A program made the translations under genes and the position numbers. From positions 1 through 52,572 of the forward strand of contig CAZAUT010000006.1 of the NCBI GenBank assembly GCA_964488535.1: 52,572 nt of DNA. Reading direction: 5' to 3'. The notes under the pieces were generated by a model. The model was not told the origin of the DNA and did no database searches. It was given only the letters and a program-made list of their open reading frames with translations. Source of the stretch: an uncultured Gammaproteobacteria bacterium. GTDB taxonomy: Bacteria > Patescibacteriota > Microgenomatia > UBA8517. Positions 13,022 to 34,357 of the stretch are shown here, piece after piece (the stretch's first letter is position 1; every line of letters starts with the position of its first letter).

Positions 13022-13054
13022 CAATAACGCGCAATTCACAAGAGCGAACATGAT

Positions 13055-14801: not shown

Positions 14802-14829
14802 ACTGTATAATTATACTCAATTCTGCCAA

Positions 14830-14890: not shown

Positions 14891-14894
14891 ATAA

Positions 14895-14967
<73 letters not shown>

Positions 14968-15111
14968 CAAAAATTTCGTGATGTTTTCTTCAAAAACCGC
15001 AAAAACTTAAGTTATCGGCACATCGGAAAATTTAAAACCTCGCTTCACAATTTCTTAAAACATTTTCATTCTTTACTTAATACGCCGTATTTCTTATGAT
15101 GAATAATTGGG

Positions 15112-18100
15112 GTGTTTTTCTGCCCATTATCAATGAGTAATTATTCTAAACAAAAAGTTGTGTTTCCGATGATTTCAATGAAAACGGGAATCCTTTTTTT
15201 ACTGCAGCTTCTTATTGCCGGTTTTATCAGACAAACCAACATCACATCAAATATTAATGCGCAAGAAAGCGCAAAACGACTTCCTTCCTCCGTTTTTTCA
15301 TACGGCGGGGACTGCGGAAACTATAAAGGAGGATGTCCTTTAACCGCATTTACGGCGGATGTTGTAACGACACAATCCAAAACGGCAAACGATTTTTTCT
15401 TAAAAACCATTGACAACGGTTATAACGGTAAGATTGTTTTTGAATATGAAGGAGGAGACGACGGATACAATGCTTTCAATATCAGATATTGCAATCCAGA
15501 TAAAACAGGACTTGAAGATCCTGGGTGTAAAACCGACCACGCATACAACACTCAAAGACATCGTGTTAAAAGAGTTATCACTTACGACGGAATGGGAAAT
15601 TACTACGCAGCTGATCACAATTTTTTGGGTGATGGGGCAAATCAGGGGTTGGCATATGTTGAAGAATATGGAGAGGAAAGTGCTGAATGCGACCTTGAAA
15701 TTGATACCGAAAATCCGATAGGAGTATGCGGAGGTGACCCTCCCGGATGTGCTTCGCCGTGCAGTTGGAACACTTCAAATCTTGCCTGCTGCGATTCGGG
15801 GTACAAAGAATACGAATGCAATGGAGATCCGGGTGGCTGCAGCGATACATACGGCATCAGACTTTGTGTACCGGATTGTAAAAGGACTTATTTTTCCGGA
15901 TATGAATTTTTAGGCTACCCTGAAGTGGAAACATTAACTTACGAAAAAAATTCTACTGTAAACATTGCTTCAAAATCCTACGCCTATTACCATCAGGCGC
16001 TTGAAACAGACACATGTTTCAAACCAAGTCCGTTAAGCGGTGTTTCCGCACTGGGAAAAGTAATTGACGCCGATAACTCAACAAAATGGAATGAGTCAAA
16101 ACAAACCTTCAAAGTGCGTTTTGGAGATATGAACACACCAAACGAATGGGTGGAAAAAACAGACTCCGAACTTGATTCTTATTGTGAATCTTATATTCCC
16201 GGTGAAACAGTATCCCTTGTTATTCCGGTTGACACAATTTCTTCAAATATCATTAATTCTCAAAAAACTCTTTGTACCAAATCAACTCTGCAGTACAACC
16301 CAACCGACCCTTACGCTATGCCGAATAAATCAATCGCCTGGGGAAAGGTTGACTGTAACACTTACGAGGATATAAACGATTTAACCCCGATTGTTTCTTA
16401 TACCAACTATACCCCCGCAAATACACTAAACACATGGATACTTCCCCTTCCTTGCGAAAATTGGATGTCGGACCTTAATAATTTAACAAAATTCAACCAT
16501 ACGAAAACTTACTTTTTAGGAATGAACACGGCTTGTGATACAAACGCTTTCCCTATTTTAACCAAAATAATCAAAAACGAAACTTTAAAAGACAATCTTC
16601 CATATTCCGTAAGCACAATTTCATACGATACAACATATCCATGGCTTCCTGTTTCGATAACAGATGTTTTGGGAAACATAACATCGACTGTTTTTGATTC
16701 GGTTTATCATATTTATCCCGTTTCCGTCACTAATGCCAAGGGGCAGACGGTTACGACAGAATATGACTTTAATACACCCGATACCACCCATCCGAATTAC
16801 GCAGGTGTCAGAGGACTTCCTGTCAAAACGATAGGGTTAAATGGCGATACCACAACAAATGTTTACGACGATTTCGGAAGGATTAAAGAAACCTACTATA
16901 CGGGAAGATCCCCATCGACCCACACCCCAAACAAGTTTTTTGATTATTACTACTTTAACGAAGACGATTTTCCCGATTTCTGCGAAACACAACATAATTG
17001 CCTTATCGGGCTCGGAAAACAGATTGATCCTATCAACAACCTCGGACCGAAAATGATGATTTCGGAAGCAGTAAGGTTTAACGATAACGGAACAATAGGT
17101 ACTATAGGAGGAACCCATAAATACATAAACGGAATTGGACAAAGCGTTCAAACAAGAAATGTCTGGTATGATGGCGAGTGGTCCGACGCGGGATATTCAA
17201 TAGACGGAGGATTGTATGACATCATACGGTCTCAAACATTCAATTCTTTAGGTCAAACAGAATACCAAAGTGAAATTTATACCGCAAATCCATACCCTTT
17301 TGCCGGAGAAAGCCTGGAAAACTCATATGATGCAAGAGATTTTATTGCGGATTCCGGCATCAATAAGGTGCACAACGTATATGATGGATTCGGAAGGATA
17401 ATCCAAACCGAAAATCCGGATGGATCATCAGACAAAACGCTATACGAATTGAACGGTAATCCGCTTAAGGTAAAATACCTTGATCCGAATTGCACGGACG
17501 ACAATTCTGCCACCCCCTGTTCGGAAATAGTCACAACCTCGAACTCTTTCGGCCAAACGATCAAATCGGAAGCAATTTCCTCCGCAAAAACCTATTCCAC
17601 AAGATACGAATACCATGAAATTCTCGGGGTAAACACAAAAACTTTCGATACATTGGGGAATGCTGTAACAATCAACGAATATGATACCATCGGTCGAAAA
17701 ACAAAATCCTGGAATATTGACATGTGCCCGGCAATGTCCGGTGATGAAAATTCGTGGAGATATTTCTACGATAAAGCAGGCAATATTACAAAACAGACGG
17801 ATCCCAATAATATATCAACCATCCTTGAATACGACGTATTAAACAGGCTCTTGACCAAACATGTCAACGGGGAAAGAACGCTGTCGAACAGTTATGATAT
17901 ATGCACAAACGGTATCGGGAAACTTTGCAGTACGGCATCTTATACTCCCAATGGAACCATAAGTAAGCGGGAAAGTTATATTTACAATAAGCGCGGTCTG
18001 TTGGATTATAAATTGGATGGTCTTGAAGGTGTTGATTTTCCCGACACAATTCTAAACGGCCGGTATTTTCAAACGCAATTTACCTATGATGAGGCGGACC

Positions 18101-21012
18101 GACCTCTTTCGGTAAAATACGGCGGTGACGTGACCATCGGGATACCAGATGAAACTGTAAGTTATATTTATGACCGTGCCAATTTATCGGGCATAACCGG
18201 ATACGCAAACAACGCTCTATACAATAAAGATTCACAAGTTATAAGTTACAGATCGGCAAATAACGTTCAAAACTCGTTTTCTTACAGAACCGACAACCAT
18301 CTTCTAAACTCAATTTCAATTACTCAGGGTTCAATCACAGACGCCCAAAGATTGATGCTTGCTTATGAATATGACAGTGCCGGAAATATTACAAGAATAA
18401 TTGATAATAATCCAAGCAGACCATCGGATTTTAAACTTAATCAAACCTTCACGTATGACCCTTTGTACCGTTTGCTTTCCACAAGCGGTTCATACAACTC
18501 AAATTATTCATACGATGATATCGGCAATATTACCTCTAAAAATGAAGGGGGTACACAAATTTCACTTACATATGGTGATTACCAAAGCGGGTATTATCAC
18601 CGCCCGGAAAGTTATATATCTGATACTGTTGTTCATAGTTTTGTGTACGACAATCTCGGAAATACTGTATCTAACGGATCCAATTTATACAATTACGATG
18701 CTGATAATCGGCTTATAAATACCGGATCAGCTGCTGCACCAAAGGTCACCCCGACAATTGCTCCCCCAACTACTCCGGGTGATTGTTCCGGTCTTCAGCT
18801 TTGTTTATGCCAATGTCCGGAAGGATATCTTCCCTGGAACAATAATTGCGAAACACTGGGCGGAACCTGTAACGGAACATGCGAATGTCTTTTGAACGGT
18901 GCTCCGACACCAACACCGGGTGTCATCCCGACCGATTTTAATCAACCTCTCCCGTCATCAACCCCGACTCCAACAACGGAACCGCTACCGACAAGTGTTC
19001 CAACTTCAACTCCAATTCCAACTCCTTCAATCTGCACACCAAACATTCTTGAACCGAAAAGCATGTCGGTTATTCAGACAAGGGATGTTTATATATCATG
19101 GAGCGACGAATGTCCTTACAGTAATATTGTTGCTTACGAGATATCTGTTAATGCACAGGTGTTTAATTATCAGGAAATCGTTCCTGTACCAGTAAACTAT
19201 TCCGTTGTTAACGGAAGCGAAATAGGATTAACGTATCGGGGTAACTATACAATAAGCATAAGGTCGTGTCTTGATAAGGCTTGTACGCAAACGGGCGGTT
19301 GGTCACCTGCTGTAAGTTTTACCTGGCAGCCTGCACTTGGGTATGTCTGTGATAACCAAGGCTGGGTATGCAGCCAGAGTGAATGCTATTACAACAGCGA
19401 TGATTCCTGCGTTCTGTCGTGCGAAGAATGCGACGGTATGCATAAGGAATGCTCTTCCTCGGGAGACGGATGTTTCTACTATTCCGGTGAAGGTTATGAT
19501 ATATGTCTTTACGATAATGAATGCGCAATTACCATTCCCACTCCAACTCCCGATCCTGGAAGCTGTGTCTGCAGAAACAATAAAGTTACAAGAAACAACT
19601 GTATTGATACAACTCCTATATGTAAGGAAAATGCCTGCTTCTGCGAGGTAAACACATTGGGAGTCAGTTCGTCAAAAGAAGAAGTACTGTCAACAACGGA
19701 TCCTATAAATTTCGTCAATTTTGCGTATGACGCTATTGGTCAAAGAATTGCAAAGTTAATTTACGGAAGCGATCATACTTATTATATTTCCCCCGGTTTG
19801 GAAGTCGTTTTTAATCCCGACGGATCCCTTAAGCTCTGGCGCAGGAATTTTTCGTTTCTCGGCAACCTGTCCGCTGTCAGAATCGGTCAGGCAGGAAGTG
19901 AAAGTAAGTCGTTTATCCATTCCGACCATCTGGGAAGTGTTGCTATATCCACCGACCAAAACGGAGCTGTAATATCACAACAGGTTTATTACCCGTATGG
20001 AAACGTCAGAACGTCCCTCGGTACCTCCCCGACCGAAAGAGGATATACCGGGCAAATTTCGGATTATGCCGATACCAATCTGTATTATTACAATGCAAGA
20101 TATTATAACCCAATAATTGCGAAATTCACCCAGGCGGATTCCGCTTCGGATGGACTTAACAAATATGCCTATGTAGGAAATAATCCAATCAATGCAACGG
20201 ATCCAACAGGACACATGGCAGGACAATCTTACATGCACGACTGGGATGAATCACCCGCGTCAAATTGCGACACAAGTGATTATTACTGCAGACACCAAGA
20301 AACGGATTTTGATCCGTACACAGATATAGTTCCGCTAAACGAGAGTAACATTGATATTTACAACTACAACATTCCAAGCAGCGATGCCACTAACTATTTG
20401 GCTCTATTGGCATCAAGCACCTCACAAACAACCCCGCCCTGGTGGTGGCAATACTACCATTTTATGAAGCATGCGTCATATGCCGGTTTTAACGGATACA
20501 CAATCCAATCAGTTAAGGGATTTTTGGGATTTATTACTAATAATATTGTGAGAGGTGCCAGTGAAATATATCACCGACCGGGTGGAGTTGATATTAATGG
20601 AAACGCAATTAAAGAAGCATACATATTTGTTAAAGAAGTAGCGGGACAAAAATGGGCAGCATTTATTACACCAAACGGGAAAATTATAACAGCTTTCAAT
20701 CTTGGTATATCCAAAGGAAGTTATACAGCAAAGGAAGAAGCCAGGCAGTTTGGGAAAATCGTCAGTTCTTCAAAAATAACCGATTATTCAAATTTACCCC
20801 GTTTAATTACCAGAGATTGGATAAAAAATACTCCATCAATTATCAAGGTGTTTTTAGGTTCCTTTGGGTATCACGCCCTTTTAGAAATAGAAAGATTTTC
20901 AGTCAACTACTCGTCTTTCATACGCGCACCAATACTGGTTGTACCGAAAGGTATTTTTGAATGCGGTCCGTTAAATCCCATTATGTGCGGATATGACGAT
21001 AATAAAACATAA
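15112..21012 (+). CDS. Giant RHS/YD-repeat polymorphic toxin (RHS1): shell, inserted Cys-rich/FN3-like domains, RHS core, C-terminal toxin domain
   Basis: 1966 aa. There are many YD repeats (VYDDFGRIKE, VYDGFGRIIQTENPDG, FYDKAGNITKQTDPNN, EYDSAGNITRI and others). The RHS core reads YYPYG..RGYTGQ..YYYNARYYNPIIAKFTQADS..NKYAYVGNNPINATDPTGH and is followed by a roughly 265-aa unique tail. The listed start is a GTG; the true start could be the Met at 15169 or 15178 (MKTGILFLLQLLIAG signal). Confidence 0.9.
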   Translation: MFFCPLSMSNYSKQKVVFPMISMKTGILFLLQLLIAGFIRQTNITSNINAQESAKRLPSSVFSYGGDCGNYKGGCPLTAFTADVVTTQSKTANDFFLKTIDNGYNGKIVFEYEGGDDGYNAFNIRYCNPDKTGLEDPGCKTDHAYNTQRHRVKRVITYDGMGNYYAADHNFLGDGANQGLAYVEEYGEESAECDLEIDTENPIGVCGGDPPGCASPCSWNTSNLACCDSGYKEYECNGDPGGCSDTYGIRLCVPDCKRTYFSGYEFLGYPEVETLTYEKNSTVNIASKSYAYYHQALETDTCFKPSPLSGVSALGKVIDADNSTKWNESKQTFKVRFGDMNTPNEWVEKTDSELDSYCESYIPGETVSLVIPVDTISSNIINSQKTLCTKSTLQYNPTDPYAMPNKSIAWGKVDCNTYEDINDLTPIVSYTNYTPANTLNTWILPLPCENWMSDLNNLTKFNHTKTYFLGMNTACDTNAFPILTKIIKNETLKDNLPYSVSTISYDTTYPWLPVSITDVLGNITSTVFDSVYHIYPVSVTNAKGQTVTTEYDFNTPDTTHPNYAGVRGLPVKTIGLNGDTTTNVYDDFGRIKETYYTGRSPSTHTPNKFFDYYYFNEDDFPDFCETQHNCLIGLGKQIDPINNLGPKMMISEAVRFNDNGTIGTIGGTHKYINGIGQSVQTRNVWYDGEWSDAGYSIDGGLYDIIRSQTFNSLGQTEYQSEIYTANPYPFAGESLENSYDARDFIADSGINKVHNVYDGFGRIIQTENPDGSSDKTLYELNGNPLKVKYLDPNCTDDNSATPCSEIVTTSNSFGQTIKSEAISSAKTYSTRYEYHEILGVNTKTFDTLGNAVTINEYDTIGRKTKSWNIDMCPAMSGDENSWRYFYDKAGNITKQTDPNNISTILEYDVLNRLLTKHVNGERTLSNSYDICTNGIGKLCSTASYTPNGTISKRESYIYNKRGLLDYKLDGLEGVDFPDTILNGRYFQTQFTYDEADRPLSVKYGGDVTIGIPDETVSYIYDRANLSGITGYANNALYNKDSQVISYRSANNVQNSFSYRTDNHLLNSISITQGSITDAQRLMLAYEYDSAGNITRIIDNNPSRPSDFKLNQTFTYDPLYRLLSTSGSYNSNYSYDDIGNITSKNEGGTQISLTYGDYQSGYYHRPESYISDTVVHSFVYDNLGNTVSNGSNLYNYDADNRLINTGSAAAPKVTPTIAPPTTPGDCSGLQLCLCQCPEGYLPWNNNCETLGGTCNGTCECLLNGAPTPTPGVIPTDFNQPLPSSTPTPTTEPLPTSVPTSTPIPTPSICTPNILEPKSMSVIQTRDVYISWSDECPYSNIVAYEISVNAQVFNYQEIVPVPVNYSVVNGSEIGLTYRGNYTISIRSCLDKACTQTGGWSPAVSFTWQPALGYVCDNQGWVCSQSECYYNSDDSCVLSCEECDGMHKECSSSGDGCFYYSGEGYDICLYDNECAITIPTPTPDPGSCVCRNNKVTRNNCIDTTPICKENACFCEVNTLGVSSSKEEVLSTTDPINFVNFAYDAIGQRIAKLIYGSDHTYYISPGLEVVFNPDGSLKLWRRNFSFLGNLSAVRIGQAGSESKSFIHSDHLGSVAISTDQNGAVISQQVYYPYGNVRTSLGTSPTERGYTGQISDYADTNLYYYNARYYNPIIAKFTQADSASDGLNKYAYVGNNPINATDPTGHMAGQSYMHDWDESPASNCDTSDYYCRHQETDFDPYTDIVPLNESNIDIYNYNIPSSDATNYLALLASSTSQTTPPWWWQYYHFMKHASYAGFNGYTIQSVKGFLGFITNNIVRGASEIYHRPGGVDINGNAIKEAYIFVKEVAGQKWAAFITPNGKIITAFNLGISKGSYTAKEEARQFGKIVSSSKITDYSNLPRLITRDWIKNTPSIIKVFLGSFGYHALLEIERFSVNYSSFIRAPILVVPKGIFECGPLNPIMCGYDDNKT

Positions 21013-21034
21013 TTTAGTGTATAATTTTACAGCT

Positions 21035-21382
21035 ATGAGTAAAAATGAAACCCGTTCCGAAACACGACAGAGCTTTGAAGGACTTGATGATCCGGAAGCC
21101 AAATACAAATTGGTGGAAACCTGGTTAAGAGAAAGTAATGTTATAACGGTTCAGGAAACAGGTGATGTTGTATCGCAAGAAGACTGCCTGCCGGCGGTAA
21201 CATTAATTCTGCATAATATATTAACCGACAAGGACGGACAACAGATTTTAGCCAGTACACTTAAAAATCATCCCGATTTGGAAAAACTTTTCTCTGAAGC
21301 TGTTATCCATATTGGCTATAAGCATCCACAGGGCGAAAACGAAATTCTGAAATTGATAAAAAAGCTGGCTCGTAAGGCATAA
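21035..21382 (+). CDS. Candidate immunity protein for the RHS1 C-terminal toxin
   Basis: A small acidic cytoplasmic protein of 115 aa from MSKNETRSE, lying immediately 3' of the toxin gene. The assignment is positional inference only. Confidence 0.5.
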   Translation: MSKNETRSETRQSFEGLDDPEAKYKLVETWLRESNVITVQETGDVVSQEDCLPAVTLILHNILTDKDGQQILASTLKNHPDLEKLFSEAVIHIGYKHPQGENEILKLIKKLARKA

Positions 21383-21415
21383 TCAATTGTTTGAAAATAC
21401 GCCATCTTATCAATC

Positions 21416-21904
21416 ATGAACATCAAGATTAAAAGTAAATTTATAAAAATATTCATATTGGCGTCTGTCTTTATTTTATCTATCGGTCTTGTTTTTTCCC
21501 TTTATCTCGTCAAACAAAACCAGGATGTCAGACGCAGTGCGCAAAACCTCTCCCCCACCCAATCCCCCCTTCTGGCGGTTGTAGAAAAACCTTCCATTCT
21601 TCCCGGTGAATTTTTTGTAATCAATATTTATGACAGCCTTGACAACAAAATCCCGTATAGCGGATACCTTTTTGTTAAATCACAAACCTGCATCAACAAT
21701 TCCTGCAGTTCATATACCGGACAATGGAAGGATTTCTCTGGAAAACCTGTTTATGCCGACAATGGGACTGTATCGTTATCTGTTCCTTCGGATACCTCCC
21801 CACAGACACTCCGCATAAGATTCACAACATCCTACCCGGTAAAAAAACTTGATTGGAGTAACGAAATTACACTTACGGTTAACTCTGTCATATCTGATAA
21901 TTAG
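21416..21904 (+). CDS. Small secreted or anchored protein, paralogue of 32439..32921
   Basis: 162 aa with an N-terminal TM, then QNQDVRRSAQNLSPTQ. It is strongly similar to the second copy along its whole length, ending KKLDWSNEITLTVNS in both. Confidence 0.75.
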   Translation: MNIKIKSKFIKIFILASVFILSIGLVFSLYLVKQNQDVRRSAQNLSPTQSPLLAVVEKPSILPGEFFVINIYDSLDNKIPYSGYLFVKSQTCINNSCSSYTGQWKDFSGKPVYADNGTVSLSVPSDTSPQTLRIRFTTSYPVKKLDWSNEITLTVNSVISDN

Positions 21905-21906
21905 CC

Positions 21907-23439
21907 ATGGAACCATTTCAATTCATATCCAACAAGATACGCAGTGCAGTTTTTAAGTATACTTTGTTTACCAATACAAAAAAGGTGCCCCTTACAATAA
22001 TCTCCTTAATAATCATTGTTTTTTCGCTTGCCGTTTCCAACGATAATGTTATTGTCGGCTTTTTGAATAAAGCCGGATTGATTTCTCTTCTTCGTTCAAA
22101 CGGAATTATAAAAACCTCCTATGGCGGATATTTCAAGGCTCTTGAAAAACAGAATCTCGTTTACGACTATAATCGCGACGGAGTTGTTTCGGGAGAAGAT
22201 TACAGCCTTTTTGTGTCAGCACTGTCCAAAAAAAACCTTCCGCCTTCACCCTCTATAACACCAACTCCTGCTGTATCTCCAATTATTGACAGCGGTACCG
22301 AATCCGATGAAACGGCTGAAGGAGAGAGTATTACCCTGCCTTCCGTCCGTACAGCATCGTCCAATACTTTTACCGGTTCAGCAACCTCGTCATATCCCAT
22401 TTCACTCCCTGAAGGTATGGCAGGCTTGCGTCCGTCACTATCGTTAAACTATTCATCAGGATCTGTTGACGACCTTTATACCGGCGTTGAAACAAAATGG
22501 AGAAACGATCCCGATCACTCATATCAGCGCCAGGCGGGTATTTTTGGACTTGGATGGGAGTTGTCGGGTTTTGGTTCAATCTCAAGAGACATAAACGGAA
22601 CGCTTAATGAACCTGCAGACGATAAATTTATCCTGTCGTTTGAAGGGGGGTTTGCAAGCTTGACTTATGAAAGCGGTGACAGTTACTACAGCGTCTGGAG
22701 AACTGCACCAAATCTTAAAACAAAAGTTGAAAGATATGGTATTCCGAAAACTTATGACTATGGCGGGGGTTCGGTCGTCCTGTCCCGATATTTCTGGGTA
22801 ATAACCGCCGGTGACGGGACAAAATATACTTTCGGAAGCGATGTGGCCGTTCCATTCTGGCACAGAACTAATGATCCCGACAATGCTTTACCCGAGGGAA
22901 ACGAAGAGGAGGCCTGGTTTCCTCTTTATGAAGAAGGAACAAATATCGGAACGCGTTCATGGATGCTTTTCGGGAACAGCGATATGGGGTATCACGCTCT
23001 TGAAACCAGATGGCATTTGTACAAAGTAATGAATTTATACGCAGTTCAGATGAATTACCAGAACTATTTTGAATTTGGAGAATATAAAGAAAAAAGTTAC
23101 GTTCAGGCATCCTACCCATGGGCAATTACCTACGGAACAAACGAAGTCCTTTTTTCCTATGAACCAAGACTGGACACCCAAACGCATCAGGATGACAGTG
23201 AACCGGTAAAACAACCCCAAAAAGCCCTTTACCGCGCTAAAAAGATCAATGTTAAAACATCGGGAAAATCAATTGCGGCATACACTCTCGAATACAAGTA
23301 CGGGTACGACTATACAAAACACCCTAATTTAATATATGACCCTCAAAATAATACTTATTCGGGAACTGCATCTCCCGGTGACGCTATTCATTCTCTTTTG
23401 TATAAAATCACCCCCTGGAGTTCGGATCCTGACTCTTAA
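21907..23439 (+). CDS. SpvB/TcB-N-terminal-like protein (SpvB-like 1), membrane anchored
   Basis: It has a TM anchor and a dockerin/EF-hand-like DYNRDGVVSGEDYSLF. The SpvB signature is LRPSLSLNYSSGSVDD...AGIFGLGWELSGFGSISRD...DDKFILSFEGG. Confidence 0.7.
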   Translation: MEPFQFISNKIRSAVFKYTLFTNTKKVPLTIISLIIIVFSLAVSNDNVIVGFLNKAGLISLLRSNGIIKTSYGGYFKALEKQNLVYDYNRDGVVSGEDYSLFVSALSKKNLPPSPSITPTPAVSPIIDSGTESDETAEGESITLPSVRTASSNTFTGSATSSYPISLPEGMAGLRPSLSLNYSSGSVDDLYTGVETKWRNDPDHSYQRQAGIFGLGWELSGFGSISRDINGTLNEPADDKFILSFEGGFASLTYESGDSYYSVWRTAPNLKTKVERYGIPKTYDYGGGSVVLSRYFWVITAGDGTKYTFGSDVAVPFWHRTNDPDNALPEGNEEEAWFPLYEEGTNIGTRSWMLFGNSDMGYHALETRWHLYKVMNLYAVQMNYQNYFEFGEYKEKSYVQASYPWAITYGTNEVLFSYEPRLDTQTHQDDSEPVKQPQKALYRAKKINVKTSGKSIAAYTLEYKYGYDYTKHPNLIYDPQNNTYSGTASPGDAIHSLLYKITPWSSDPDS

Positions 23440-23575
23440 TTTACAAACCATTCAAAGTTCTTTATCAAAAAAATAAATTGCCATATACTGCACTCGCAGA
23501 CCCCAATCCCTTTCCTGTTGACACCCGCATCGTAAATAGCCTATTCTTATTCTTAATATAACGAAGGGGATTTTT

Positions 23576-24298: not shown

Positions 24299-24359
24299 GT
24301 ACCAATGAACACCAATTACCAATATTAATTTGACATTTGTATTTATTGGAAATTGAGTT

Positions 24360-25863: not shown

Positions 25864-25886
25864 GGTCAAAACACGGTCGCGGTAAT

Positions 25887-27425
25887 ATGACAACATTAAT
25901 CAATAAATTCAAAAATATACTTCTCCATAAAGAAATCGGGGTTTTTATTCTTTTCCTTTTCGCAACTTTTTTATCATTAATCATCGTACGCGACGGACAT
26001 AAAACGAGGTTTGTATTGACAAAAGCGGATTACAGAGATTTTGCGGAGGCGATAAGGGGGCAGGATAAATCGTATGATATTAATCACGATGGATCCGTTA
26101 CGGGCGAGGATATAAATTTAATATTGGACAAAAAACCTACCCGCCATCTTGTCTCTTCTTCTCAAAGGAATAACGAAACGGAAATTGACGGTATAGTTTT
26201 GGAAAACACTCTTTCCCTTACGGCCGAAACCGCAACAAGCGGGTATTTGGGTTTGCCTTCAATGCGCGGGATTTCAAGCGATCTGTTTACCGGATCCGTC
26301 ACTTCTTCCTTCTCATTCGAACTTCCGGAAGGGCGCGGCGGAATGATGCCTGCAATATCTTTGAGCTATTCATCCGGTTCTGTTGACGACCAGTATACCG
26401 GTATCCTTACAAAATGGAGAAATGATGCAGAACATCCTTACCAAAGCCAGGCAGGCATTTTCGGGTTGGGATGGTCTTTAAACGGAATATCCTCAATTAT
26501 AAGAAATACACAGGGAACCCTTAACTATGAATCCGACGATACATTTATCATAAATTCCGGAGCCGGATCGGCAAACTTAATACCGGAATCCGGAAATTAC
26601 GGTTGGAACGAGGAGGGTTACAGTATTTGGCGGACAGCACCGAACCTAAAAATGAAAGTTGAACGTGTACAGCATTGCAATACCATTAGTTCGGATCCGG
26701 AAGCATACCCAAATGGCATCAGATTTGTCTGCAGAGCACAATGGACAGCTACCGACGAAAACGGTACAAAATTCACCTTCGGGTATGATGCCGTTGATTA
26801 CTGGCACCGTACAAAAGACCCCGACAACAATTTTCCGGAAGGAGAAGGAAAATCGTGGTTTCCTTTATATAACGATGTTGACGGAAAAATTGAAGGGGCC
26901 TCCGAATGGCTTTTGAACGGCGGAAATATTGACTTTTGGGGAGGGTTGCATTCAACCACAACACGCTGGTTATTGACAAAAACCGAAAGTGTTCTAAGCA
27001 CACCGGCACAACCTCTTAATATCGGATACAAATACAACTTTCAGCTCGGAGAATACTCAAAGGGCGAAGAAACAAAATCATACGTGCGGATATCATATCC
27101 GCTTGCAATAGAATATTTCCCCCACCGTGTTGACTTTTTTGTCGACTATCCCGTGGGAAGGTGGGATTATAAAATTCACCAGGGAGAAAACGCAACTCCC
27201 GACCAACCTCAAACGGCAACATACAGAATAAAAAAAGTACTTATTTCAACAGCCAATCAAGCGATTAGGACTTATATCTTTAACTATAAGTACGGCTATG
27301 ATAGAAACAAACACCCCGACAAAAACAGAAACGGCACCCTTGACTCGGATGAGGTGATTTCGGGACAGGTTATTCATTCTCTTTTGGAATCCATTACTCC
27401 TTACAGCGGAGACAAAAGCCTATGA
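25887..27425 (+). CDS. SpvB/TcB-N-terminal-like protein (SpvB-like 2), membrane anchored
   Basis: It has a TM anchor and DINHDGSVTGEDINLI. The SpvB signature is MMPAISLSYSSGSVDD...AGIFGLGWSLNGISSIIRN...DDTFIINSGAG. Its stop overlaps the RHS2 start (ATGA). Confidence 0.7.
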   Translation: MTTLINKFKNILLHKEIGVFILFLFATFLSLIIVRDGHKTRFVLTKADYRDFAEAIRGQDKSYDINHDGSVTGEDINLILDKKPTRHLVSSSQRNNETEIDGIVLENTLSLTAETATSGYLGLPSMRGISSDLFTGSVTSSFSFELPEGRGGMMPAISLSYSSGSVDDQYTGILTKWRNDAEHPYQSQAGIFGLGWSLNGISSIIRNTQGTLNYESDDTFIINSGAGSANLIPESGNYGWNEEGYSIWRTAPNLKMKVERVQHCNTISSDPEAYPNGIRFVCRAQWTATDENGTKFTFGYDAVDYWHRTKDPDNNFPEGEGKSWFPLYNDVDGKIEGASEWLLNGGNIDFWGGLHSTTTRWLLTKTESVLSTPAQPLNIGYKYNFQLGEYSKGEETKSYVRISYPLAIEYFPHRVDFFVDYPVGRWDYKIHQGENATPDQPQTATYRIKKVLISTANQAIRTYIFNYKYGYDRNKHPDKNRNGTLDSDEVISGQVIHSLLESITPYSGDKSL

Positions 27426-30400
27426 AAGAAAAAGTATTGAATATTTATACATTATCCCTTTTTCTTGTATCTTTTGTTCTCTTTGCTTCTTTTTATGGAA
27501 GTAAGGAGAATAAAAATCCCAAGAGTTATACAAATAATGTCCTTGGTGTATCAGCCTTGCCCGTTAAGCCTCTGCCTAAGATAAGTTTTTCTTACGGGGA
27601 AAATTGTGATTCTTTCGAAGGAGGGTGTCCGCTTTATTCATTCTATTCACAAGACGTGATTGCCTCGCAGGTAAGAACAGCTAATGATTTTTTTCTAAAA
27701 TCGGTCGAGAATAATCTTAACGGGAAAACCGTTTATGAATATTGGAGCGATGCATACGGAGGACAGGCGCTGGTTGTTAAAACATGCGATGCCGACAAAA
27801 CGGACCATTACAGCAACGAATGTAAAACGGATCACTCATACAATACGCAAAGACACAGAATAAAAAGTGCCACAGTTTATGATGGTATGGGAAATTTCGT
27901 CAAAAACGACTTTAACTTTACCGGAAGCAGTTCTTTCCAGGGTCTTGCATACGTTAGCAGTTACGGCGACTATTGGCTTGAAGGTACAAACTGCTGCGGG
28001 TTAAACAGCGAAGACTATTCCTGCGAAAACCGTACGGACTGCGCATGCCCGGGAGAAGAAGGACCGTCATGTACCACAACAGGAGGGATCGACTGTTATC
28101 AAAACTACTCCTGTTCAAATTGTACCGATTTACGATGGGATGAGTATGGAAGCTGTTGTCAGGATAATTACCCTGTTGATTATACATTGCGTTATTCAAC
28201 AAGCGACGGATCGCGTTCGATTTGTCCCGCCAGTTCACCCTGTTGTCTTTCGGACAATACGAGGTGTTACTCAAATTGCAAGTTAAAAAAGGATAAGCCT
28301 TTTGCAGATTATCAGTTTTTGGGCTATCCGGAAGTCGAAGCGGTAACATATCGGAAAAACAGCACATCGCTTGTATCCTCAAAAAGTAAGAATTTCTTCT
28401 ATCAGGCACTTGAAACCGACACCTGTTTTAAGCCGAGTCCTTTAAAAGGTTTGGTGTATAAACAGATCGATTATTCAGCCGACGACGCATCCAAATGGAT
28501 AGAAAATATAAGCGATTACCGCGTAAGAATCGGCCCAATGTTCGGGGAGACTACAAATTATTCAGCCGGCAGTTTGGCTGATATTTGCCCCGATTACAAT
28601 CCGGAAAGTACGGTAACTTTACTGCTTCCTACCCAAAATATTACCAGAAATATAATCGGCGGTAATGCGACGCTGTGTACAAAGACATCCTCTTCCGAAG
28701 GTACTGACAACCCTTACGCCTTGCCAAAAATTGACGTCAACTGGGGAAAGGTCAGCTGTACCGCTCCTTATAATGATGATACTTCTGACACCGCTGTGTA
28801 TTCATATACGGAATACACAAACGCCCTCGGCGACAACACGGACGAAACACTTTGGATTGCGCCGAAAGTCAAAGAAACCTGGTCATCGGACTATGCCAAC
28901 ATTTCAAAGTTCAACCACACAAAAATATATTACGACGGACAAAGTTTCGGCATATTGTCGGGACCGGGACAAGTTACAAAAAGTGAAATTTACAAAGATG
29001 GCACGATTGCGTCTATCTCAACAACTTCTTACAAAAGCGGTTATCCATGGCTGGTTAGCGAAATCAAGTCAAGCAAACCCAGCCAGAACGATCCGCGTAC
29101 TTTAATAACGACTTCCCTTATTGAATATGAAAACATATTTTCCATGTATCCTACTAAAATTACAAATGCCCTGGGACATGTAACTACTACCGATTACGAC
29201 TTTCTGCCGGTTGCCGATACACATCCCAACAGAGGATGGCAGATGGGTTTACCGATAAAAATTACCGATGCCAATAGCGATACCATAAGTTATGTTTACG
29301 ACGAGTTCGGCAGAAACATCCAAACATATCTCCCCAACCGTGTTCCCGAACAGGGTAATCCAAATTCTTGGAACGATTACTATTACTTCAACGAGGACGA
29401 CCTTGGTGCCGACTGCAGTATAGTAAATCACTGCTTGCCCGGTTTGGGAAAACAACTAGGTAACAAAACAGGTCCGAAATATATGACGTCAAATGCAATG
29501 CGGTATTCAACCGATTCGCTTATTGTCTCCGGAAGCCATACTTATATTGACGGAATCGGACAAAGTGTTCAGACAAGACAGGTTTTTTATAACAATTCAT
29601 GGACAAACGGCGGAATTCCCGTTGACGGTGAAGGTAACCACGATATTATTCAGTCAAATACATACACGGCATCGGGAAGTATCGAATATTCAAGTGACAT
29701 TTACACCGCCGATCCTTACATAAATTTTCAAACCAACAGTTTTGATACAAGAAATTTTATTGACGATCCGCTTATATATGAAACGCGGTATACATATGAC
29801 GGTTTTGGCAGAAACACCGAAATTCTTTACCCCGACGGAAACAAAGAAAAAACGGTTTATGAACTTGACGGGAACCCCCTTAAAACAAAATTCCAGAGTA
29901 AAAATTGTACTGATACTGACTCCGCCACTCTATGTGCGGAAAACGTCTCCATAAGCGACGCTTTTGGTCAAACAATTCGTTTACAAACTCTAACTCAAGA
30001 CGGAAATGTATATGATGTAAACACTGCTTACCATTCGATCCTCGGTCTTCCTCTTGAAGTCAGGGACGACCAGAACATTCTGATATCAAAATTTGTCTAC
30101 GATTCACTCGGACGCAAAACAAAGATGTGGAACATTGATCTTTCCCCCGACATGATTAACGATACAAGCTCATGGAGGTACACTTTCGATCCTGCCGGAA
30201 ATTTAAGAAGCGAAACCAATCCCAACGGTGTAGTAACTGAATATGTTTATGACAATTTGAACCGCATTACAAGCATTAAGACCGGAGGAAATCTTCTCTC
30301 TTCCACAACCTACGACTTTTCAACAGGGTGCAGCAACGGCAAAGGCCGGGTATGTAAAAGCATTGATTATAATCCCGACGTTTCGGCACAAGCTCTTTTG

Positions 30401-32437
30401 ACAACAACGATGAATTATAATGACCGCGGACAGATTTTGTCCACATCAACCGTTACATCAAATCTTCCCGATGAAGAGGTGGACGGTAAAACTTTTTCTA
30501 CAAATTACACCTACGACGAGGGGGGAAGACTTTTGACGACCGGTTTTAACGACAATACTGCGATGAACATCCCCGATGAAACAATAACCAACACCTACAC
30601 AAAACCATACCTCACCAGCGTAACAGGCATATCCTCTTATGGAAAAAACGCCGTTTTTGATAAAAACAGCAGAATGACAAGTTTCAATTATGGAAACGGT
30701 GTCGCACAGTACCATACGTTTAATATCTTGTCAGGAACCCTAACCAGCATGAAGGCGACCTCGTCTTATGGAATTGATCTTATGAATTTAAATTATGACT
30801 ACGATCCTAACGGTACAATAAAGTCTATTGTTGACGGCGTCGATTCATCAAGAACACAAACCTTCACTTATAATTACCTAAATCAAATACAGAAAGTTGA
30901 AGGAGCAATAACGGCTGACTATACATATAGCAACAACCCATCCCTGAATAATATAACCTCCAAAAATGAAGGTGGAAAAGTTGTCTCAATGACTTATGGC
31001 ACATCGAGTGACGGATATTACCACCGCCCGGAATCCGGAACAATTGACGGAAACAACGTAACTTATGTATATGATTCTCTCGGCAATCTGACCTCGGATG
31101 GGCAGTTCGGCTATGAATACGATAAGGCAAATCGGTTGAAAAAAGTAACAAGAGTTGCATTACCCACCCCCACACCCGGGCCAACATCGACGCCAACTCC
31201 GGCGCCATACAAGGTTTTTGTTTCGTCAGCACGTTATCTTGGTAATCTCGGAGGTTTAGCAGGTGCCGATATAAAATGCCAAACTCTCGCCCAAAACGCA
31301 GGATTGGCCGGTATATTCAAAGCCTGGCTTTCTACAACCTCGGTTGACGCAAAAAACAGAATACCGGACAAAACTTATTCTCTCGTTGACGGAACAATTA
31401 TTGCAGACAACAAATCGGATCTTCTCGATTCCAGCATTAAACACGCCATCAATCTCGACGAGAACGGCAATGGGATTAATCTTTATTTCACCGTCCATAC
31501 CGGTACAACTTCTGATGGAACATGGATGGAAAATTCAAATACAACCTGTAATAACTGGGTAGATTCCACGAGCACATTCTACGGTATGCGGGGTGATTAT
31601 CCAAGTTCCGATTACAAGTGGACAGAATTTTCTTCAAGTTATAGGTGCGATTATTCCTCAAGGCTTTATTGTTTCCAAACAGGTTCCGTACCCACACCGA
31701 CGCCTTCACCTACATCAACTCCAGCGCTTCTGCCGACACCCTCCCCCACTTTGGCACCGACAACAATTCCTACTTCTACTCCCATACCTACTCCATCGGT
31801 TTGTATTCCGGAAGTTCTTGAACCAAGAAATATGTCTGTTATACAAACCAGAGATGTTTACACCTCCTGGACGGACGAGTGTTCATCTGCCGTTATTGCC
31901 GGATACCAGGTGGCAATTAGTTCTCTTATATTTAACTACCAAAGCGGTCTTCTTCCTAAAACCAGCAACTTCATTAAAATAAACGGTGAAGAGATTGGTC
32001 TGTCATATCAGGGAAATTACTCATTAAGTGTCAGATCTTGTCTCGATGCAGCCTGTTCGCGAACAGGAAACTGGTCAAACCCGGTAAGTTTTGTCTGGCA
32101 GCCGGCGAAAGGATATGTTTGTGACGACGCAGCGTGGGTCTGCCAGGAAAAAGAATGCTATTACAACTCCGACAGTTTGTGTGTGTTATCCTGTGAGGAA
32201 TGCGACGGAATGCACAAGGAATGCTCTTCCTCGGGAGACGGATGTTTCTACTATTCCGGTGAAGGATATGATATATGTCTTTACGACAATGAGTGCGCAA
32301 TTACCATTCCCACTCCAACTCCCGATCCCGGAAGCTGTGTCTGTAGAAACAACAAGGTGAGAGAAAATAATTGCAGCGCCGGGACATCACCTAAATGTGA
32401 GGAAAATAGTTGTTCGTGCATATATGCAATGCTTTAA
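27422..32437 (+). CDS. Giant RHS/YD-repeat protein (RHS2) lacking an RHS core and toxin; ends in DUF1554/endostatin-like, FN3-like and Cys-rich domains
   Basis: 1671 aa, collinear with RHS1. YD repeats include VYDEFGRNIQTY, TYDGFGRNTEILYPDG, VYDSLGRKTKMW and TFDPAGNLRSETNPNG. It stops at CSCIYAML, exactly where RHS1 continues into its core. Confidence 0.9.
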   Translation: MKEKVLNIYTLSLFLVSFVLFASFYGSKENKNPKSYTNNVLGVSALPVKPLPKISFSYGENCDSFEGGCPLYSFYSQDVIASQVRTANDFFLKSVENNLNGKTVYEYWSDAYGGQALVVKTCDADKTDHYSNECKTDHSYNTQRHRIKSATVYDGMGNFVKNDFNFTGSSSFQGLAYVSSYGDYWLEGTNCCGLNSEDYSCENRTDCACPGEEGPSCTTTGGIDCYQNYSCSNCTDLRWDEYGSCCQDNYPVDYTLRYSTSDGSRSICPASSPCCLSDNTRCYSNCKLKKDKPFADYQFLGYPEVEAVTYRKNSTSLVSSKSKNFFYQALETDTCFKPSPLKGLVYKQIDYSADDASKWIENISDYRVRIGPMFGETTNYSAGSLADICPDYNPESTVTLLLPTQNITRNIIGGNATLCTKTSSSEGTDNPYALPKIDVNWGKVSCTAPYNDDTSDTAVYSYTEYTNALGDNTDETLWIAPKVKETWSSDYANISKFNHTKIYYDGQSFGILSGPGQVTKSEIYKDGTIASISTTSYKSGYPWLVSEIKSSKPSQNDPRTLITTSLIEYENIFSMYPTKITNALGHVTTTDYDFLPVADTHPNRGWQMGLPIKITDANSDTISYVYDEFGRNIQTYLPNRVPEQGNPNSWNDYYYFNEDDLGADCSIVNHCLPGLGKQLGNKTGPKYMTSNAMRYSTDSLIVSGSHTYIDGIGQSVQTRQVFYNNSWTNGGIPVDGEGNHDIIQSNTYTASGSIEYSSDIYTADPYINFQTNSFDTRNFIDDPLIYETRYTYDGFGRNTEILYPDGNKEKTVYELDGNPLKTKFQSKNCTDTDSATLCAENVSISDAFGQTIRLQTLTQDGNVYDVNTAYHSILGLPLEVRDDQNILISKFVYDSLGRKTKMWNIDLSPDMINDTSSWRYTFDPAGNLRSETNPNGVVTEYVYDNLNRITSIKTGGNLLSSTTYDFSTGCSNGKGRVCKSIDYNPDVSAQALLTTTMNYNDRGQILSTSTVTSNLPDEEVDGKTFSTNYTYDEGGRLLTTGFNDNTAMNIPDETITNTYTKPYLTSVTGISSYGKNAVFDKNSRMTSFNYGNGVAQYHTFNILSGTLTSMKATSSYGIDLMNLNYDYDPNGTIKSIVDGVDSSRTQTFTYNYLNQIQKVEGAITADYTYSNNPSLNNITSKNEGGKVVSMTYGTSSDGYYHRPESGTIDGNNVTYVYDSLGNLTSDGQFGYEYDKANRLKKVTRVALPTPTPGPTSTPTPAPYKVFVSSARYLGNLGGLAGADIKCQTLAQNAGLAGIFKAWLSTTSVDAKNRIPDKTYSLVDGTIIADNKSDLLDSSIKHAINLDENGNGINLYFTVHTGTTSDGTWMENSNTTCNNWVDSTSTFYGMRGDYPSSDYKWTEFSSSYRCDYSSRLYCFQTGSVPTPTPSPTSTPALLPTPSPTLAPTTIPTSTPIPTPSVCIPEVLEPRNMSVIQTRDVYTSWTDECSSAVIAGYQVAISSLIFNYQSGLLPKTSNFIKINGEEIGLSYQGNYSLSVRSCLDAACSRTGNWSNPVSFVWQPAKGYVCDDAAWVCQEKECYYNSDSLCVLSCEECDGMHKECSSSGDGCFYYSGEGYDICLYDNECAITIPTPTPDPGSCVCRNNKVRENNCSAGTSPKCEENSCSCIYAML

Positions 32438-32438
32438 T

Positions 32439-32921
32439 ATGAATATTACTGGAAAAAACAAAACCGGAATTATTTTTCTTTTTCTCTTTATTCTTGTCAT
32501 GTCGGCAGGACTGGTCGGAACGCTTTATCTTACACATCAAAATCAGGATATCAGACGCAAGGCTTCTGACTTGAGTCCGACACAATTGCCATTTTATGTA
32601 TCTTTAGATACATCATCCGTTCTCCCCGGAGAATCAGTAATAATTTCCGTTTACGATAACGATTCCAAACAGCTTCCCTATAACGGATATATTTTTGTCA
32701 AATCACGAATATGTATCGAGTCGCAAAACTGTAAATCATACACCGGACAGTATGTTAACAATCAGGGAAAACCCGTTTATTTTTCAAACGGTACGGCAAC
32801 GATTGATATTCCAGTAGACAGCCCCCCACAAACTACCCGTATGCGATTTATCACCACTTACCCGTCCAAAAAACTCGATTGGAGTAACGAAATTACACTT
32901 ACCGTTAATTCCAAACTGTAA
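32439..32921 (+). CDS. Small secreted or anchored protein, paralogue of 21416..21904
   Basis: The start is set at MNITGKNKTG, 1 nt after the RHS2 stop. It has a TM, then QNQDIRRKASDLSPTQ, and ends KKLDWSNEITLTVNSKL. Confidence 0.75.
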   Translation: MNITGKNKTGIIFLFLFILVMSAGLVGTLYLTHQNQDIRRKASDLSPTQLPFYVSLDTSSVLPGESVIISVYDNDSKQLPYNGYIFVKSRICIESQNCKSYTGQYVNNQGKPVYFSNGTATIDIPVDSPPQTTRMRFITTYPSKKLDWSNEITLTVNSKL

Positions 32922-32935
32922 AAGATTATTCGTTA

Positions 32936-34357
32936 ATGAAAAGACTGTCCAAACAATTTAGTAATTTTCTGATCTTCCTTCTTCTTTTCGTCTCCACAGG
33001 ATGTTTCTTTACAGGTTCAAAAGATTTGGTATCTGGTCAGACTACTGAAGGTGTTGAGTTTCTGTATACTGCATCAGGTCAAAGACTGGCAAAACTGGTT
33101 GAAAATGAAGATCATACATACTATCTTCCGGGGGTTGAGGTGACCATTAACGAGGCAGACGGAACAACTTCCTACAGAAGGTATTACACATTTAACGGTG
33201 TCGGGGTGGCTGTAAGAGATAGTGATGGCTTGTCATATAGTCATGGAGATAATCTGGGAAGTGTGTCTCTTTCTACAAACACTTCAGGGGTGGAATTGGG
33301 AGAACAGGTGTATTATCCGTACGGTACAACAAAGACAATTTCAGGGTCCATAAAAGGAGAAAGAAGATATACCGGACAGGTCACAGATGAGAATGTAACA
33401 GGATTTTACTACTACAACGCAAGATACTACTCCCCCGCCATGGGACGGTTTACCCAACCGGATACAATTGACAGCGGACTGAATAGGTATGCCTACGTCG
33501 GAAACAATCCTGTCAATGTAACGGATCCGAGCGGACATGCACCAAGCAAAATAATGCACGATTGGGATGAAAAACCTCACCAATATTGCAGTTTTTCGGA
33601 CCCTGCTTGCGGGCAACAAAATGGTGCAGGTAAAATCCTTGCGTCATTGAGATCTAAAAACGATCTTCTCAAACCATTAAGGGGAAAAACCAGTCAGGTT
33701 TCACAGATCGAAATATCGGACACAGTTCCTTTGACAGGATGGGGGAAAAACGCCGAAAACCTTTATTCTGCATATCGCGATACCCCCGGGTGGTGGAATG
33801 ATTACGAGGTTGATAACTTTACAGCCGAGGATTTCCTGGCATTAATGCTCTCCTATGAATTCGGTCCTCTGGCAGCATATTCAAATAAGAATATTTATGA
33901 CCGCTTGACTTCAGACTTAACGGAAGCAACGGTCCGTTGGCTTTATGGAAAGTGTGAATACGAATCAGGGTCCGTCTGTAATACGGCTACACCAAATTCC
34001 GTTTTTAATTGGGTAGGAGGAGCGTTGGAATCTTTCCAAAGAAGATGGAGGGCGGTTTACCTCGACAGTAACGGATACCTTAGGGAAATGGATCAGGAAA
34101 ATTTGAACCGTGTAACCAAAAATGAAGGTAGGGATTCAGCAATGGCCGAATCGGCTGTTTCTGCTGTGATGAATCCATCCAATACTTCTTGGATTGTAAC
34201 TTCGGGTGCTGACACAAGACTGGCTCCTTATTACTGGGGAAACGGTTCTATGTTTACAAGCTATCCTTCGGACTACCTGTGGAAATTCGGTTCCGGAAAT
34301 TCGGCCTTCTACGTACTCTCAGTTACCCAAAACGCAGCTGCGCACTACGGACGTTAA
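32936..34357 (+). CDS. Stand-alone lipoprotein carrying an RHS core plus a unique C-terminal toxin-like domain
   Basis: Signal and lipobox: MKRLSKQFSNFLIFLLLFVSTGC. It then aligns with the RHS1 core (ASGQRLAKLVENEDHTYYLPGVEV..YYPYG..RRYTGQ..YYYNARYYSPAMGRFTQPDT..NRYAYVGNNPVNVTDPSGH) and ends in a roughly 270-aa unique tail. Confidence 0.85.
   Translation: MKRLSKQFSNFLIFLLLFVSTGCFFTGSKDLVSGQTTEGVEFLYTASGQRLAKLVENEDHTYYLPGVEVTINEADGTTSYRRYYTFNGVGVAVRDSDGLSYSHGDNLGSVSLSTNTSGVELGEQVYYPYGTTKTISGSIKGERRYTGQVTDENVTGFYYYNARYYSPAMGRFTQPDTIDSGLNRYAYVGNNPVNVTDPSGHAPSKIMHDWDEKPHQYCSFSDPACGQQNGAGKILASLRSKNDLLKPLRGKTSQVSQIEISDTVPLTGWGKNAENLYSAYRDTPGWWNDYEVDNFTAEDFLALMLSYEFGPLAAYSNKNIYDRLTSDLTEATVRWLYGKCEYESGSVCNTATPNSVFNWVGGALESFQRRWRAVYLDSNGYLREMDQENLNRVTKNEGRDSAMAESAVSAVMNPSNTSWIVTSGADTRLAPYYWGNGSMFTSYPSDYLWKFGSGNSAFYVLSVTQNAAAHYGR

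Follow-up and report, generated by a model that had tools for sequence, protein, structure and literature searches.

A candidate Sec-exported, multi-subunit RHS cocoon with interchangeable toxin cartridges in a Candidate Phyla Radiation genome

Introduction

The closest described relatives of the locus reported here are the BC subunits of Tc (toxin complex) toxins, such as TcdB2-TccC3 and YenB-YenC, in which more than one polypeptide builds a large RHS cocoon with an SpvB-type N-terminal region, an Rhs core that is an aspartyl autoprotease, and a hypervariable C-terminal toxin. Several alternative toxin-bearing subunits can serve each shell, and one TcB packages three different TcC subunits (PMC11067744). 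TcC itself comprises about 650 amino acids (aa) of RHS repeats, the Rhs core and a hypervariable region of 200-400 aa, for a total of 851-1050 aa, and in a survey of Tc loci was found almost entirely in Proteobacteria (96.4%) and Firmicutes (3.2%) (PMC7861908). A second precedent is WapA of Bacillus subtilis and Streptococcus suis, which likewise has a Rhs/YD shell, a core, a polymorphic toxin and an N-terminal Sec-type signal; it is exported unfolded via Sec, folds and is cleaved outside the cell (PMC12704120), and acts in surface-associated, contact-dependent antagonism. Here we analyse positions 15112-34357 of a 52.6-kb stretch of DNA (contig CAZAUT010000006.1, hereafter the window), which carry a duplicated SpvB + RHS locus. 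We consider it probable that this locus encodes a multi-subunit RHS cocoon that is exported through Sec, tethered to the membrane and able to take swappable plug-toxin cartridges; such a cocoon would join a Tc-BC-like fold to WapA-like export.

Two further groups resemble the locus in part. Enterobacterial rhs loci carry alternative core-tip + toxin modules arrayed downstream of the main rhs gene (PMC3967940), as cartridge genes are here. Teneurins and bacterial teneurin-like YD-shell proteins share the type II topology (an N-terminal transmembrane (TM) helix and an extracellular YD shell) and appended binding domains, and a Gottesmanbacteria homologue of the locus bears the UniRef name 'Teneurin-like YD-shell domain-containing protein'.

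Results

Two related modules in a close-packed gene block

Open reading frame (ORF) calls on the window placed eleven close-packed ORFs, all on the + strand, at the coordinates that a first-pass annotation, made from the sequence alone, had assigned to them. The exception is the start of ssp2, which we correct to the ATG at 32439, right behind the RHS2 stop. The parts that bear on the cocoon are:

15112..21012, + strand: RHS1, 1966 aa, a cocoon protein with shell, core and toxin; its SpvB part is separate
19987..20214, + strand: Rhs-associated core of RHS1 (TIGR03696, residues 1626-1701, 70.6 bits)
20993..21382, + strand: imm1, 129 aa, no leader, start overlapping the RHS1 end
21416..21904, + strand: ssp1, a small membrane-anchored or secreted beta-domain protein, directly upstream of SpvB-like 1
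21907..23439, + strand: SpvB-like 1 (SpvB1), with an N-terminal TM anchor, a dockerin/EF-hand-like loop and an SpvB-type beta domain
25887..27425, + strand: SpvB-like 2 (SpvB2), with a TM anchor (residues 16-34), a calcium-loop-like motif (residues 63-75) and an SpvB domain
27422..32437, + strand: RHS2, 1671 aa, with a Sec-type leader, a YD shell (residues 48-1245), a DUF1554 domain (residues 1271-1392) and an Fn3-like/Cys-rich tail
32439..32921, + strand: ssp2, the ssp1 paralogue, between the coreless RHS2 and the cartridge
32936..34357, + strand: cartridge ('coretox'), 473 aa, with a leader (residues 1-23), RHS strands and core (residues 40-228) and a toxin domain (residues 229-473)

The view of the locus as a duplicated polymorphic-toxin locus in a Candidate Phyla Radiation (CPR) genome was borne out: RHS1 and RHS2, SpvB1 and SpvB2 (41.5% identity), and ssp1 and ssp2 (54%) are pairs of paralogues. 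The nearest named homologues belong to Candidatus Woesebacteria, with further ones in Gottesmanbacteria, Amesbacteria and Shapirobacteria; the host is therefore a CPR Microgenomates lineage.

A coreless shell and a free-standing cartridge together match RHS1

RHS1 begins with an N-terminal Sec-type leader, followed by a YD shell (residues 54-1201), a PT-linked Cys-rich/Fn3-like insert (residues ~1202-1535), the last RHS strands and the Rhs core (residues 1535-1712), and an orphan toxin domain (residues 1730-1966). As the first-pass annotation had anticipated, RHS_repeat/YD models (PF05593, TIGR01643) match RHS1 and repeats are found in RHS2 too, while TIGR03696 detects the core in RHS1 and in the 473-aa cartridge (residues 126-201, 82.9 bits) and, in the NCBIfam scan, is absent from RHS2. 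A motif alignment finds the FTQAD and TDPTG aspartyl autoprotease motifs in the RHS1 core. In the cartridge, which begins MKRLSKQFSNFLIFLLLFVSTGC, a lipobox-like leader, about 85 aa of RHS strands precede the core and a variable domain of 245 aa follows it.

Residues 1-1511 of RHS1 align with residues 1-1666 of RHS2, and RHS1 residues 1535-1729 match cartridge residues 40-228 at 50% identity. Because these complementary alignments cover RHS1 from 1 to 1511 and from 1535 to 1729, RHS2 and the cartridge reproduce the architecture of RHS1 with ssp2 in the junction, an equivalence already proposed from the sequence. The two toxin domains have only a 30-residue linker (MHDWDE.P...C) in common and are otherwise unrelated; no Pfam, NCBIfam, PDB or database homologue was found for that of RHS1, and no Pfam, NCBIfam or PDB sequence match for that of the cartridge. 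RHS1 and RHS2 are 40% identical over the shell and 68% identical over the C-terminal Cys-rich/Fn3-like part, and share a 300-nt DNA repeat at 74%, so that the paralogues are mosaic, which points to recombination within the locus. The best explanation of the second module is thus SpvB2, RHS2 as a putative coreless shell, and the cartridge, which would supply the last RHS strands, the core plug and the toxin.

At 42% identity over 97% of its length, P0176 and P0177 are orthologues of the cartridge. Among its roughly 30 nearest homologues, two of which share its toxin domain as well, every one is a free-standing protein of about 390-490 aa with a classical signal peptide; those with names come from CPR, and related cartridges carry A-x-A type cleavage sites. 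Neither the two core autoprotease aspartates (D176 and D197) nor the motif around them varies among 49 cartridges, in which the only recognisable toxin domains are transglutaminase-like and peptidase-C39-like; most of the roughly 50 cartridges carry a toxin domain of no known family. Two neighbourhoods of related cartridges were also recorded. An MNT/HepT (nucleotidyltransferase/HEPN) toxin-antitoxin pair lies between two cartridges at L001:19183-19820, where an immunity gene would be expected. At L011:6900-9129 a further core-bearing cartridge, P0283, with a Peptidase_C39_2 toxin domain, stands upstream of the shell gene, and the gene after this cartridge encodes a VanY D-Ala-D-Ala carboxypeptidase, which hints that some cartridges target the cell envelope.

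Relatives join the parts in one chain or divide them at complementary points

A full hidden Markov model (HMM) search with a profile of the SpvB-like proteins returned 1589 matches. The best of these are mostly 1250-2665 aa long, and in them the SpvB-like domain (residues ~1-540) runs straight into a segment that aligns with RHS1 and RHS2 from residue ~50; P0015 (2163 aa), P0018 and P0032 continue through core and toxin. Such single-chain relatives, with SpvB-like domain and shell and sometimes core and toxin, come from Woesebacteria, Gottesmanbacteria, Amesbacteria and Shapirobacteria. These Rosetta-stone fusions show that the SpvB-like, shell and core/toxin segments follow one another as parts of a single cocoon. 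They lack the ~50-residue leaders found on RHS1 and RHS2; thus, the split genes gained export signals and are not the product of frameshifts.

The divided layout recurs in related genomes, as follows (boundaries in RHS1 numbering):

Window: shell homology ends at 1511, cartridge starts at 1535
L001/L013, Woesebacteria GW2011_GWB1_39_12: SpvB-like + PA14 protein (804 aa), coreless shell with dockerin (1466 aa), secreted protein (286 aa), cartridge (469 aa), MNT/HepT pair, cartridge (458 aa)
L021, an independent metagenome: ssp-like gene 5' of an SpvB2 orthologue (55% identity), then an RHS2 orthologue with its own leader
L008/L018, Gottesmanbacteria: coreless SpvB + shell fusion, then two cartridges; shell homology ends at 1590, cartridges start at 1596 and 1595
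L014, Woesebacteria: coreless SpvB + shell fusion, then one cartridge; 1594, and 1601
L017, Amesbacteria: coreless SpvB + shell fusion, then three cartridges; 1590, and 1596, 1594 and 1594
L019, Amesbacteria: coreless SpvB + shell fusion, then at least two cartridges; 1590, and 1586 and 1595
L015, Gottesmanbacteria: coreless SpvB + shell fusion, cartridge upstream
L011: four exported pieces, namely SpvB + shell fusion, secreted protein, bridging piece and cartridge; shell homology ends at 1201, bridging piece 1524-1598, cartridge starts at 1592

All seven related contexts with enough sequence, like the second module of the window, place a coreless shell beside one to three free-standing 'signal peptide + core + toxin' genes. 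The cartridge starts within about 25 residues of the end of shell homology, and although the cut point differs between loci, the pieces always make up one cocoon and leave hardly any gap or overlap. The locus had been described as rearranged; this survey of gene neighbourhoods instead shows its split layout to be conserved in Woesebacteria, Gottesmanbacteria and Amesbacteria.

Two of the loci call for separate comment. In L015 (positions 9716-15625), from a Gottesmanbacteria metagenome-assembled genome, the SpvB + shell fusion reads as two overlapping ORFs of 1208 and 791 aa, which may be a frameshift or assembly error and not a true split. L026 is a contig for which the protein cluster has a member under the name Candidatus Woesearchaeota archaeon. 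Its positions 10001-17867 encode, in this order, a core + toxin protein with a signal peptide (439 aa), an immunity-like protein of 98 aa and a protein of 2085 aa. The last of these starts with a signal peptide and an SpvB-like N-terminus, carries an FG-GAP/TcdB_toxin_midN propeller and an RHS shell, ends in a Cys-rich tail and has no Rhs-core similarity. This repeats the logic of a coreless exported shell and a separate cartridge in a DPANN archaeon, there with a TcB-type propeller, and hints at a wider distribution among episymbionts.

The RHS2 shell is predicted to fold like a Tc BC cocoon

An AlphaFold2 model of RHS2 residues 48-1245, built with 26 homologues, had a pLDDT (predicted local distance difference test) of 83 and a pTM (predicted template modelling score) of 0.77. 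Its secondary structure is a continuous series of long beta-hairpins that begins at the N-terminus and includes a single disordered Cys-rich insert. In a Foldseek search against the PDB the TcdB2-TccC3 cocoon ranked top (E = 2e-37, query TM-score (TMq) 0.60-0.63), followed by Rhs proteins from type VI secretion systems (T6SS; TMq 0.2-0.4) and then teneurins. The modelled shell fold of RHS2 is thus Tc-BC-like. The DUF1554 domain that follows the shell is lectin-like, and the high cysteine content of the two proteins (60 cysteines in RHS1, 54 in RHS2) fits an extracytoplasmic location.

The term 'Tc-toxin-like' was therefore apt as far as the shell model goes, but not for the gate: the window and 24 fused homologues yielded no TcB beta-propeller. 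TcdB_toxin_midN/midC and FG-GAP propeller models gave no match in the first 700 aa of RHS1 and RHS2 (Pfam E <= 5), nor in the SpvB-like proteins or the 24 fused homologues (E <= 0.01), in which Pfam did recognise SpvB (10), Dockerin_1 (7) and DUF6443 (10). Because the propeller is the TcA-docking gate of the cocoon in Tc toxins (PMC11435725), its lack fits the lack of TcA. Pfam/NCBIfam scans of locus and flanks found no TcA-like gene within the window, as the first-pass annotation had stated, and no secretion-system gene; they gave no match to a PAAR or T6SS family, and found no wall-binding domain in the locus. Where Pfam annotation exists for related loci, it lists no VRP1/TcA family within 10 kb.

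SpvB-like anchors and export signals

The Pfam SpvB model (PF03534, cut-off 22) places SpvB2 above its cut-off (34.9 bits) and SpvB1 just below it (20.6 bits), so the SpvB label given to both proteins is upheld for the second and narrowly missed by the first. A profile of eight SpvB-like proteins matches the N-terminus of YenB, a TcB (residues 38-117, E = 0.002), across the G..P.LSLSYSSG and GxFGxGW motifs. Together these scores give a weak but consistent signal for assigning the family to SpvB. The D-x-N-x-D-G motif that had been noticed in the pair proved to be part of a loop, D-x-N-x-D-G-x-V-x-x-x-D, that is invariant among the eight proteins.

Outside the RDD group described below, a single N-terminal hydrophobic segment is present in every piece but imm1. 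A twin-arginine motif is missing from all the leaders, which makes folded co-export unlikely.

The first-pass annotation had regarded SpvB1 as uncoupled from any RHS gene. SpvB1 is 47% and SpvB2 40% identical to the SpvB-like protein of the Woesebacteria locus L001, and RHS1 is likewise closer than RHS2 to the L001 shell (46% vs 40%). Because both are closer than SpvB2 and RHS2 to the single pair of this syntenic locus, SpvB1 probably serves RHS1 as its partner and N-terminal cocoon piece. SpvB2 is, from the ATGA overlap of its stop with the RHS2 start, predicted to be translationally coupled to RHS2. A candidate cytoplasmic immunity protein is suggested for RHS1 by the position of imm1 and its lack of a leader. 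Imm1 has no hydrophobic segment and no family match in Pfam/NCBIfam scans, including a relaxed Pfam search; described earlier as acidic, it is only mildly so (isoelectric point 5.9). The first module is thus best explained as SpvB1, RHS1 with shell, core and toxin in one chain, and the imm1 candidate.

The ssp genes

The arrangement of the block is best explained by one ssp accessory gene per module. Pairing of ssp1, ssp2 and the secreted proteins of L001 (286 aa) and L011 (340 aa) with dockerins, as cohesins, is unsupported, since none matched a cohesin model at Pfam E <= 10. Right behind the N-terminal TM helix, ssp1 (QNQDVRRSA) and ssp2, and no other proteins in the window, carry a Q-x-Q-x-[IVF]-[RQ]-[RK]-[KS]-A motif (for example LVKQNQDVRRSAQ, LTHQNQDIRRKAS and VQQRQIFQKKAA), which recurs in L001:6520-9114, P0205, P0214 and P0243 and may be a CPR-specific processing or sorting signal.

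Discussion

How the locus differs from described systems

The comparison with Tc BC breaks down at several points. The locus has no detected beta-propeller gate and the window no TcA; every subunit bears a Sec-type leader or a TM anchor; the cocoon comes in as many as four pieces; it has additional lectin, dockerin or Fn3 modules; and the host is a CPR bacterium. A cartridge holds about 5-130 residues of RHS sequence, against ~650 in TcC, and at 473 aa the cartridge of the window falls short of the TcC size range, though core and variable domain are both present. 'Tc-like' thus holds for the fold and the subunit logic, not for membership.

WapA differs in being a single polypeptide with cell-wall-binding repeats, whereas the second module consists of three proteins in which no such repeats were detected; its split shell would be anchored by the TM helix of the SpvB-like piece, and an immunity gene is missing beside most cartridges. 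The WapA precedent also means that the delivery route is not wholly undescribed, as had been suggested, since Sec export with folding outside the cell is documented (PMC12704120). The orphan modules of enterobacterial rhs loci lack export signals and overlap the main gene for recombination, whereas the cartridges here are complete secreted proteins and the main gene has no matching segment. Unlike teneurins, the locus shows no detectable NHL propeller or FN-plug, its C-terminal domains are polymorphic and stand behind an intact autoprotease, and teneurins are far poorer Foldseek matches than Tc BC. T6SS Rhs effectors are set apart by the lack of any PAAR/T6SS match here and by TM-scores below those of Tc BC. 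Precedents exist for RHS cocoons, for Rhs proteins exported via Sec and for BC cocoons in two parts; what is new is a cocoon exported in pieces. In the literature that we covered, which is incomplete, we found no description of a cocoon in two to four Sec-exported subunits with minimal cartridges, or of RHS systems in CPR.

A proposed mechanism and its alternatives

In the mechanism that we propose, each chain would leave the cell unfolded through Sec, and folding and assembly of the chains would follow on the outside of the membrane, in a wall-bounded cell that lacks an outer membrane. The outcome would be one closed cocoon, held by the TM helix of the SpvB-like piece, inside which the toxin is trapped once the core plug has cleaved off. 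The appended lectin-like, dockerin, PA14, Fn3 or Cys-rich modules may bind a neighbouring cell, whether host or competitor, and contact with it would release the toxin by a step that the model leaves unspecified. Alternative cartridges would let one toxin replace another at the level of the protein, just as TcB can take different TcC subunits.

Several points weigh against this mechanism. That the pieces assemble in trans is something we infer from their sequences. A toxin that leaves Sec last must enter a shell made of another chain, and no route for this is evident. The AlphaFold2 model of SpvB2 was poor (pLDDT 47, from an eight-sequence alignment) and was dropped, having no significant Foldseek match, so the link to SpvB stands on weak sequence scores. 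Most cartridges, including that of the window, which has no same-strand gene 3' of it, lack an adjacent immunity gene, which is unusual for interbacterial toxins. Finally, the cocoon model leaves the role of ssp1 and ssp2 unexplained.

The main alternative, which we regard as unlikely, is that the pieces work independently, with coreless shells and SpvB-like anchors acting as teneurin-like adhesins and the cartridges as stand-alone, self-cleaving secreted toxins that are never encapsulated. Every piece does bear its own export signal, the shells carry binding modules (DUF1554, dockerin, PA14), and some cartridge genes lie without a shell on short contigs or in an unrelated neighbourhood (L027). 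However, independent pieces would not account for shell ends and cartridge starts that are complementary in the window and in all seven related contexts, at three cut points, nor for the joining of all parts in the single-chain relatives, and a core plug with one to five RHS strands has no known function outside a shell. It is more doubtful still that this is an ordinary Rhs locus in which RHS2 has decayed and the downstream core + toxin ORFs are silent orphan cassettes kept as a recombination reservoir. Orphan rhs C-terminal modules are well known (PMC3967940) and the mosaic relation of RHS1 and RHS2 (68% vs 40%; 300-nt repeat at 74%) indicates recombination in the locus, but start codons and canonical signal peptides stand directly before the homologous region of the cartridges, the homologous regions of shell and cartridge do not overlap, so that recombination would have nothing to act on, and the catalytic residues are invariant in 49 cartridges. 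Moreover, coreless shells are the rule in seven related contexts from three CPR lineages (Woesebacteria, Gottesmanbacteria and Amesbacteria) and in other relatives.

A canonical Tc (ABC) toxin with its TcA encoded elsewhere in the genome would suit the SpvB-domain match and the TcdB2-TccC3 structural match, and orphan TcC loci exist in Tc-bearing genomes (PMC7861908). We nevertheless think it highly improbable, given the absence of midN/midC and FG-GAP propellers from the window proteins and the 24 homologues, a modelled secondary structure that resembles a shell, its long beta-hairpins beginning at the N-terminus, the presence on every piece of a Sec-type leader or TM anchor, a cartridge of 473 aa when 97% of TcC proteins have 851-1050 aa (PMC7861908), and no VRP1/TcA near the Pfam-annotated related loci. 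Scarcely credible is the notion that frameshifts from sequencing or assembly broke a single fused gene into the split ORFs. L015 does offer a fused gene read as two overlapping ORFs, but the junctions of the window hold leaders that the fusions lack, one of them holds the entire ssp2 gene, and independent assemblies (L001-L005, L013 and L021) are split in the same way. These observations exclude an artefact for the window, in line with the first-pass annotation, which had read the genes as truly split.

Genomic setting

The spacing within the block is tight, with a 20-nt overlap of RHS1 and imm1 and gaps of ~3 nt between ssp1 and SpvB1, 1 nt between RHS2 and ssp2 and 14 nt between ssp2 and the cartridge; the sole larger gap, of 137 nt, lies 5' of RDD1. 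A scan of the block for promoters and terminators gave counts no different from those of shuffled sequence, and the operon structure is therefore drawn from gene spacing only. The remaining features in and just upstream of the block are:

12948-13022: tRNA-Arg gene, just upstream of the block
14895-14968: tRNA-Pro gene, just upstream of the block, which begins 143 nt past it
23576..25863, + strand: RDD1 (23576-24298), a 6-TM protein (24360-25355) and RDD2 (25291-25863)

RDD1 and RDD2 both match PF06271 and are 30% identical. They had been noted as embedded in the locus, yet none of the eleven related loci that we fetched contains an RDD gene, and the RDD-TM-RDD genes are probably unrelated cargo.

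The flanks are housekeeping in character (WecG, MreB, PEGA, TP_methylase, M16 peptidase and ArgRS), and the GC content of the block equals theirs. TP_methylase and PEGA (window 9156-14059) adjoin the RHS locus in L001 and L011 as well, and WecG and MreB lie near it in both the window and L011. The block looks like a stable chromosomal locus and not a recent island; a genomic island is unlikely, given the flank-like GC content and the housekeeping neighbours shared by three genomes (TP_methylase and PEGA, with WecG and MreB in L011).

Elsewhere in the window, two tandem radical SAM/SPASM genes (38393-40619, - strand) lie beside a DnaJ-domain protein (40630-41442) and could form a peptide-maturation cluster with it. 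Large ORFs of 901 and 678 aa at 1596-4301 and 5339-7375 (- strand) have no Pfam match at E <= 1e-3, and a 7TM_transglut membrane protein is encoded at 423-1424. An adenylate-kinase-like protein (34456-35586, - strand) has 376 aa, about twice the usual length, with its ADK match spread over residues 74-272.

Implications

How CPR bacteria attack, attach to or compete for hosts is largely unexplained, and the usual contact-dependent secretion systems are lacking. The locus and its relatives provide a concrete candidate in the form of a surface-tethered RHS toxin container. We put forward, as a possibility that we would not yet call probable, the broader idea that ultra-small episymbionts (CPR Microgenomates and, judging by one Woesearchaeota contig, DPANN) use an unrecognised class of RHS toxin machine. 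Two to four Sec-exported chains would self-assemble on the surface from an anchored SpvB-type base, a receptor-binding shell and interchangeable cartridges, so that toxin repertoires would change by exchange of proteins, with no TcA, T6SS or type VII secretion system. If assembly in trans is true, an RHS cocoon can form outside the cell from separately exported fragments with no cytoplasmic chaperones, and toxin diversity can be gained by swapping small plug-toxin cartridges. Both consequences would matter for the understanding of polymorphic toxins and for the engineering of protein-encapsulation devices.

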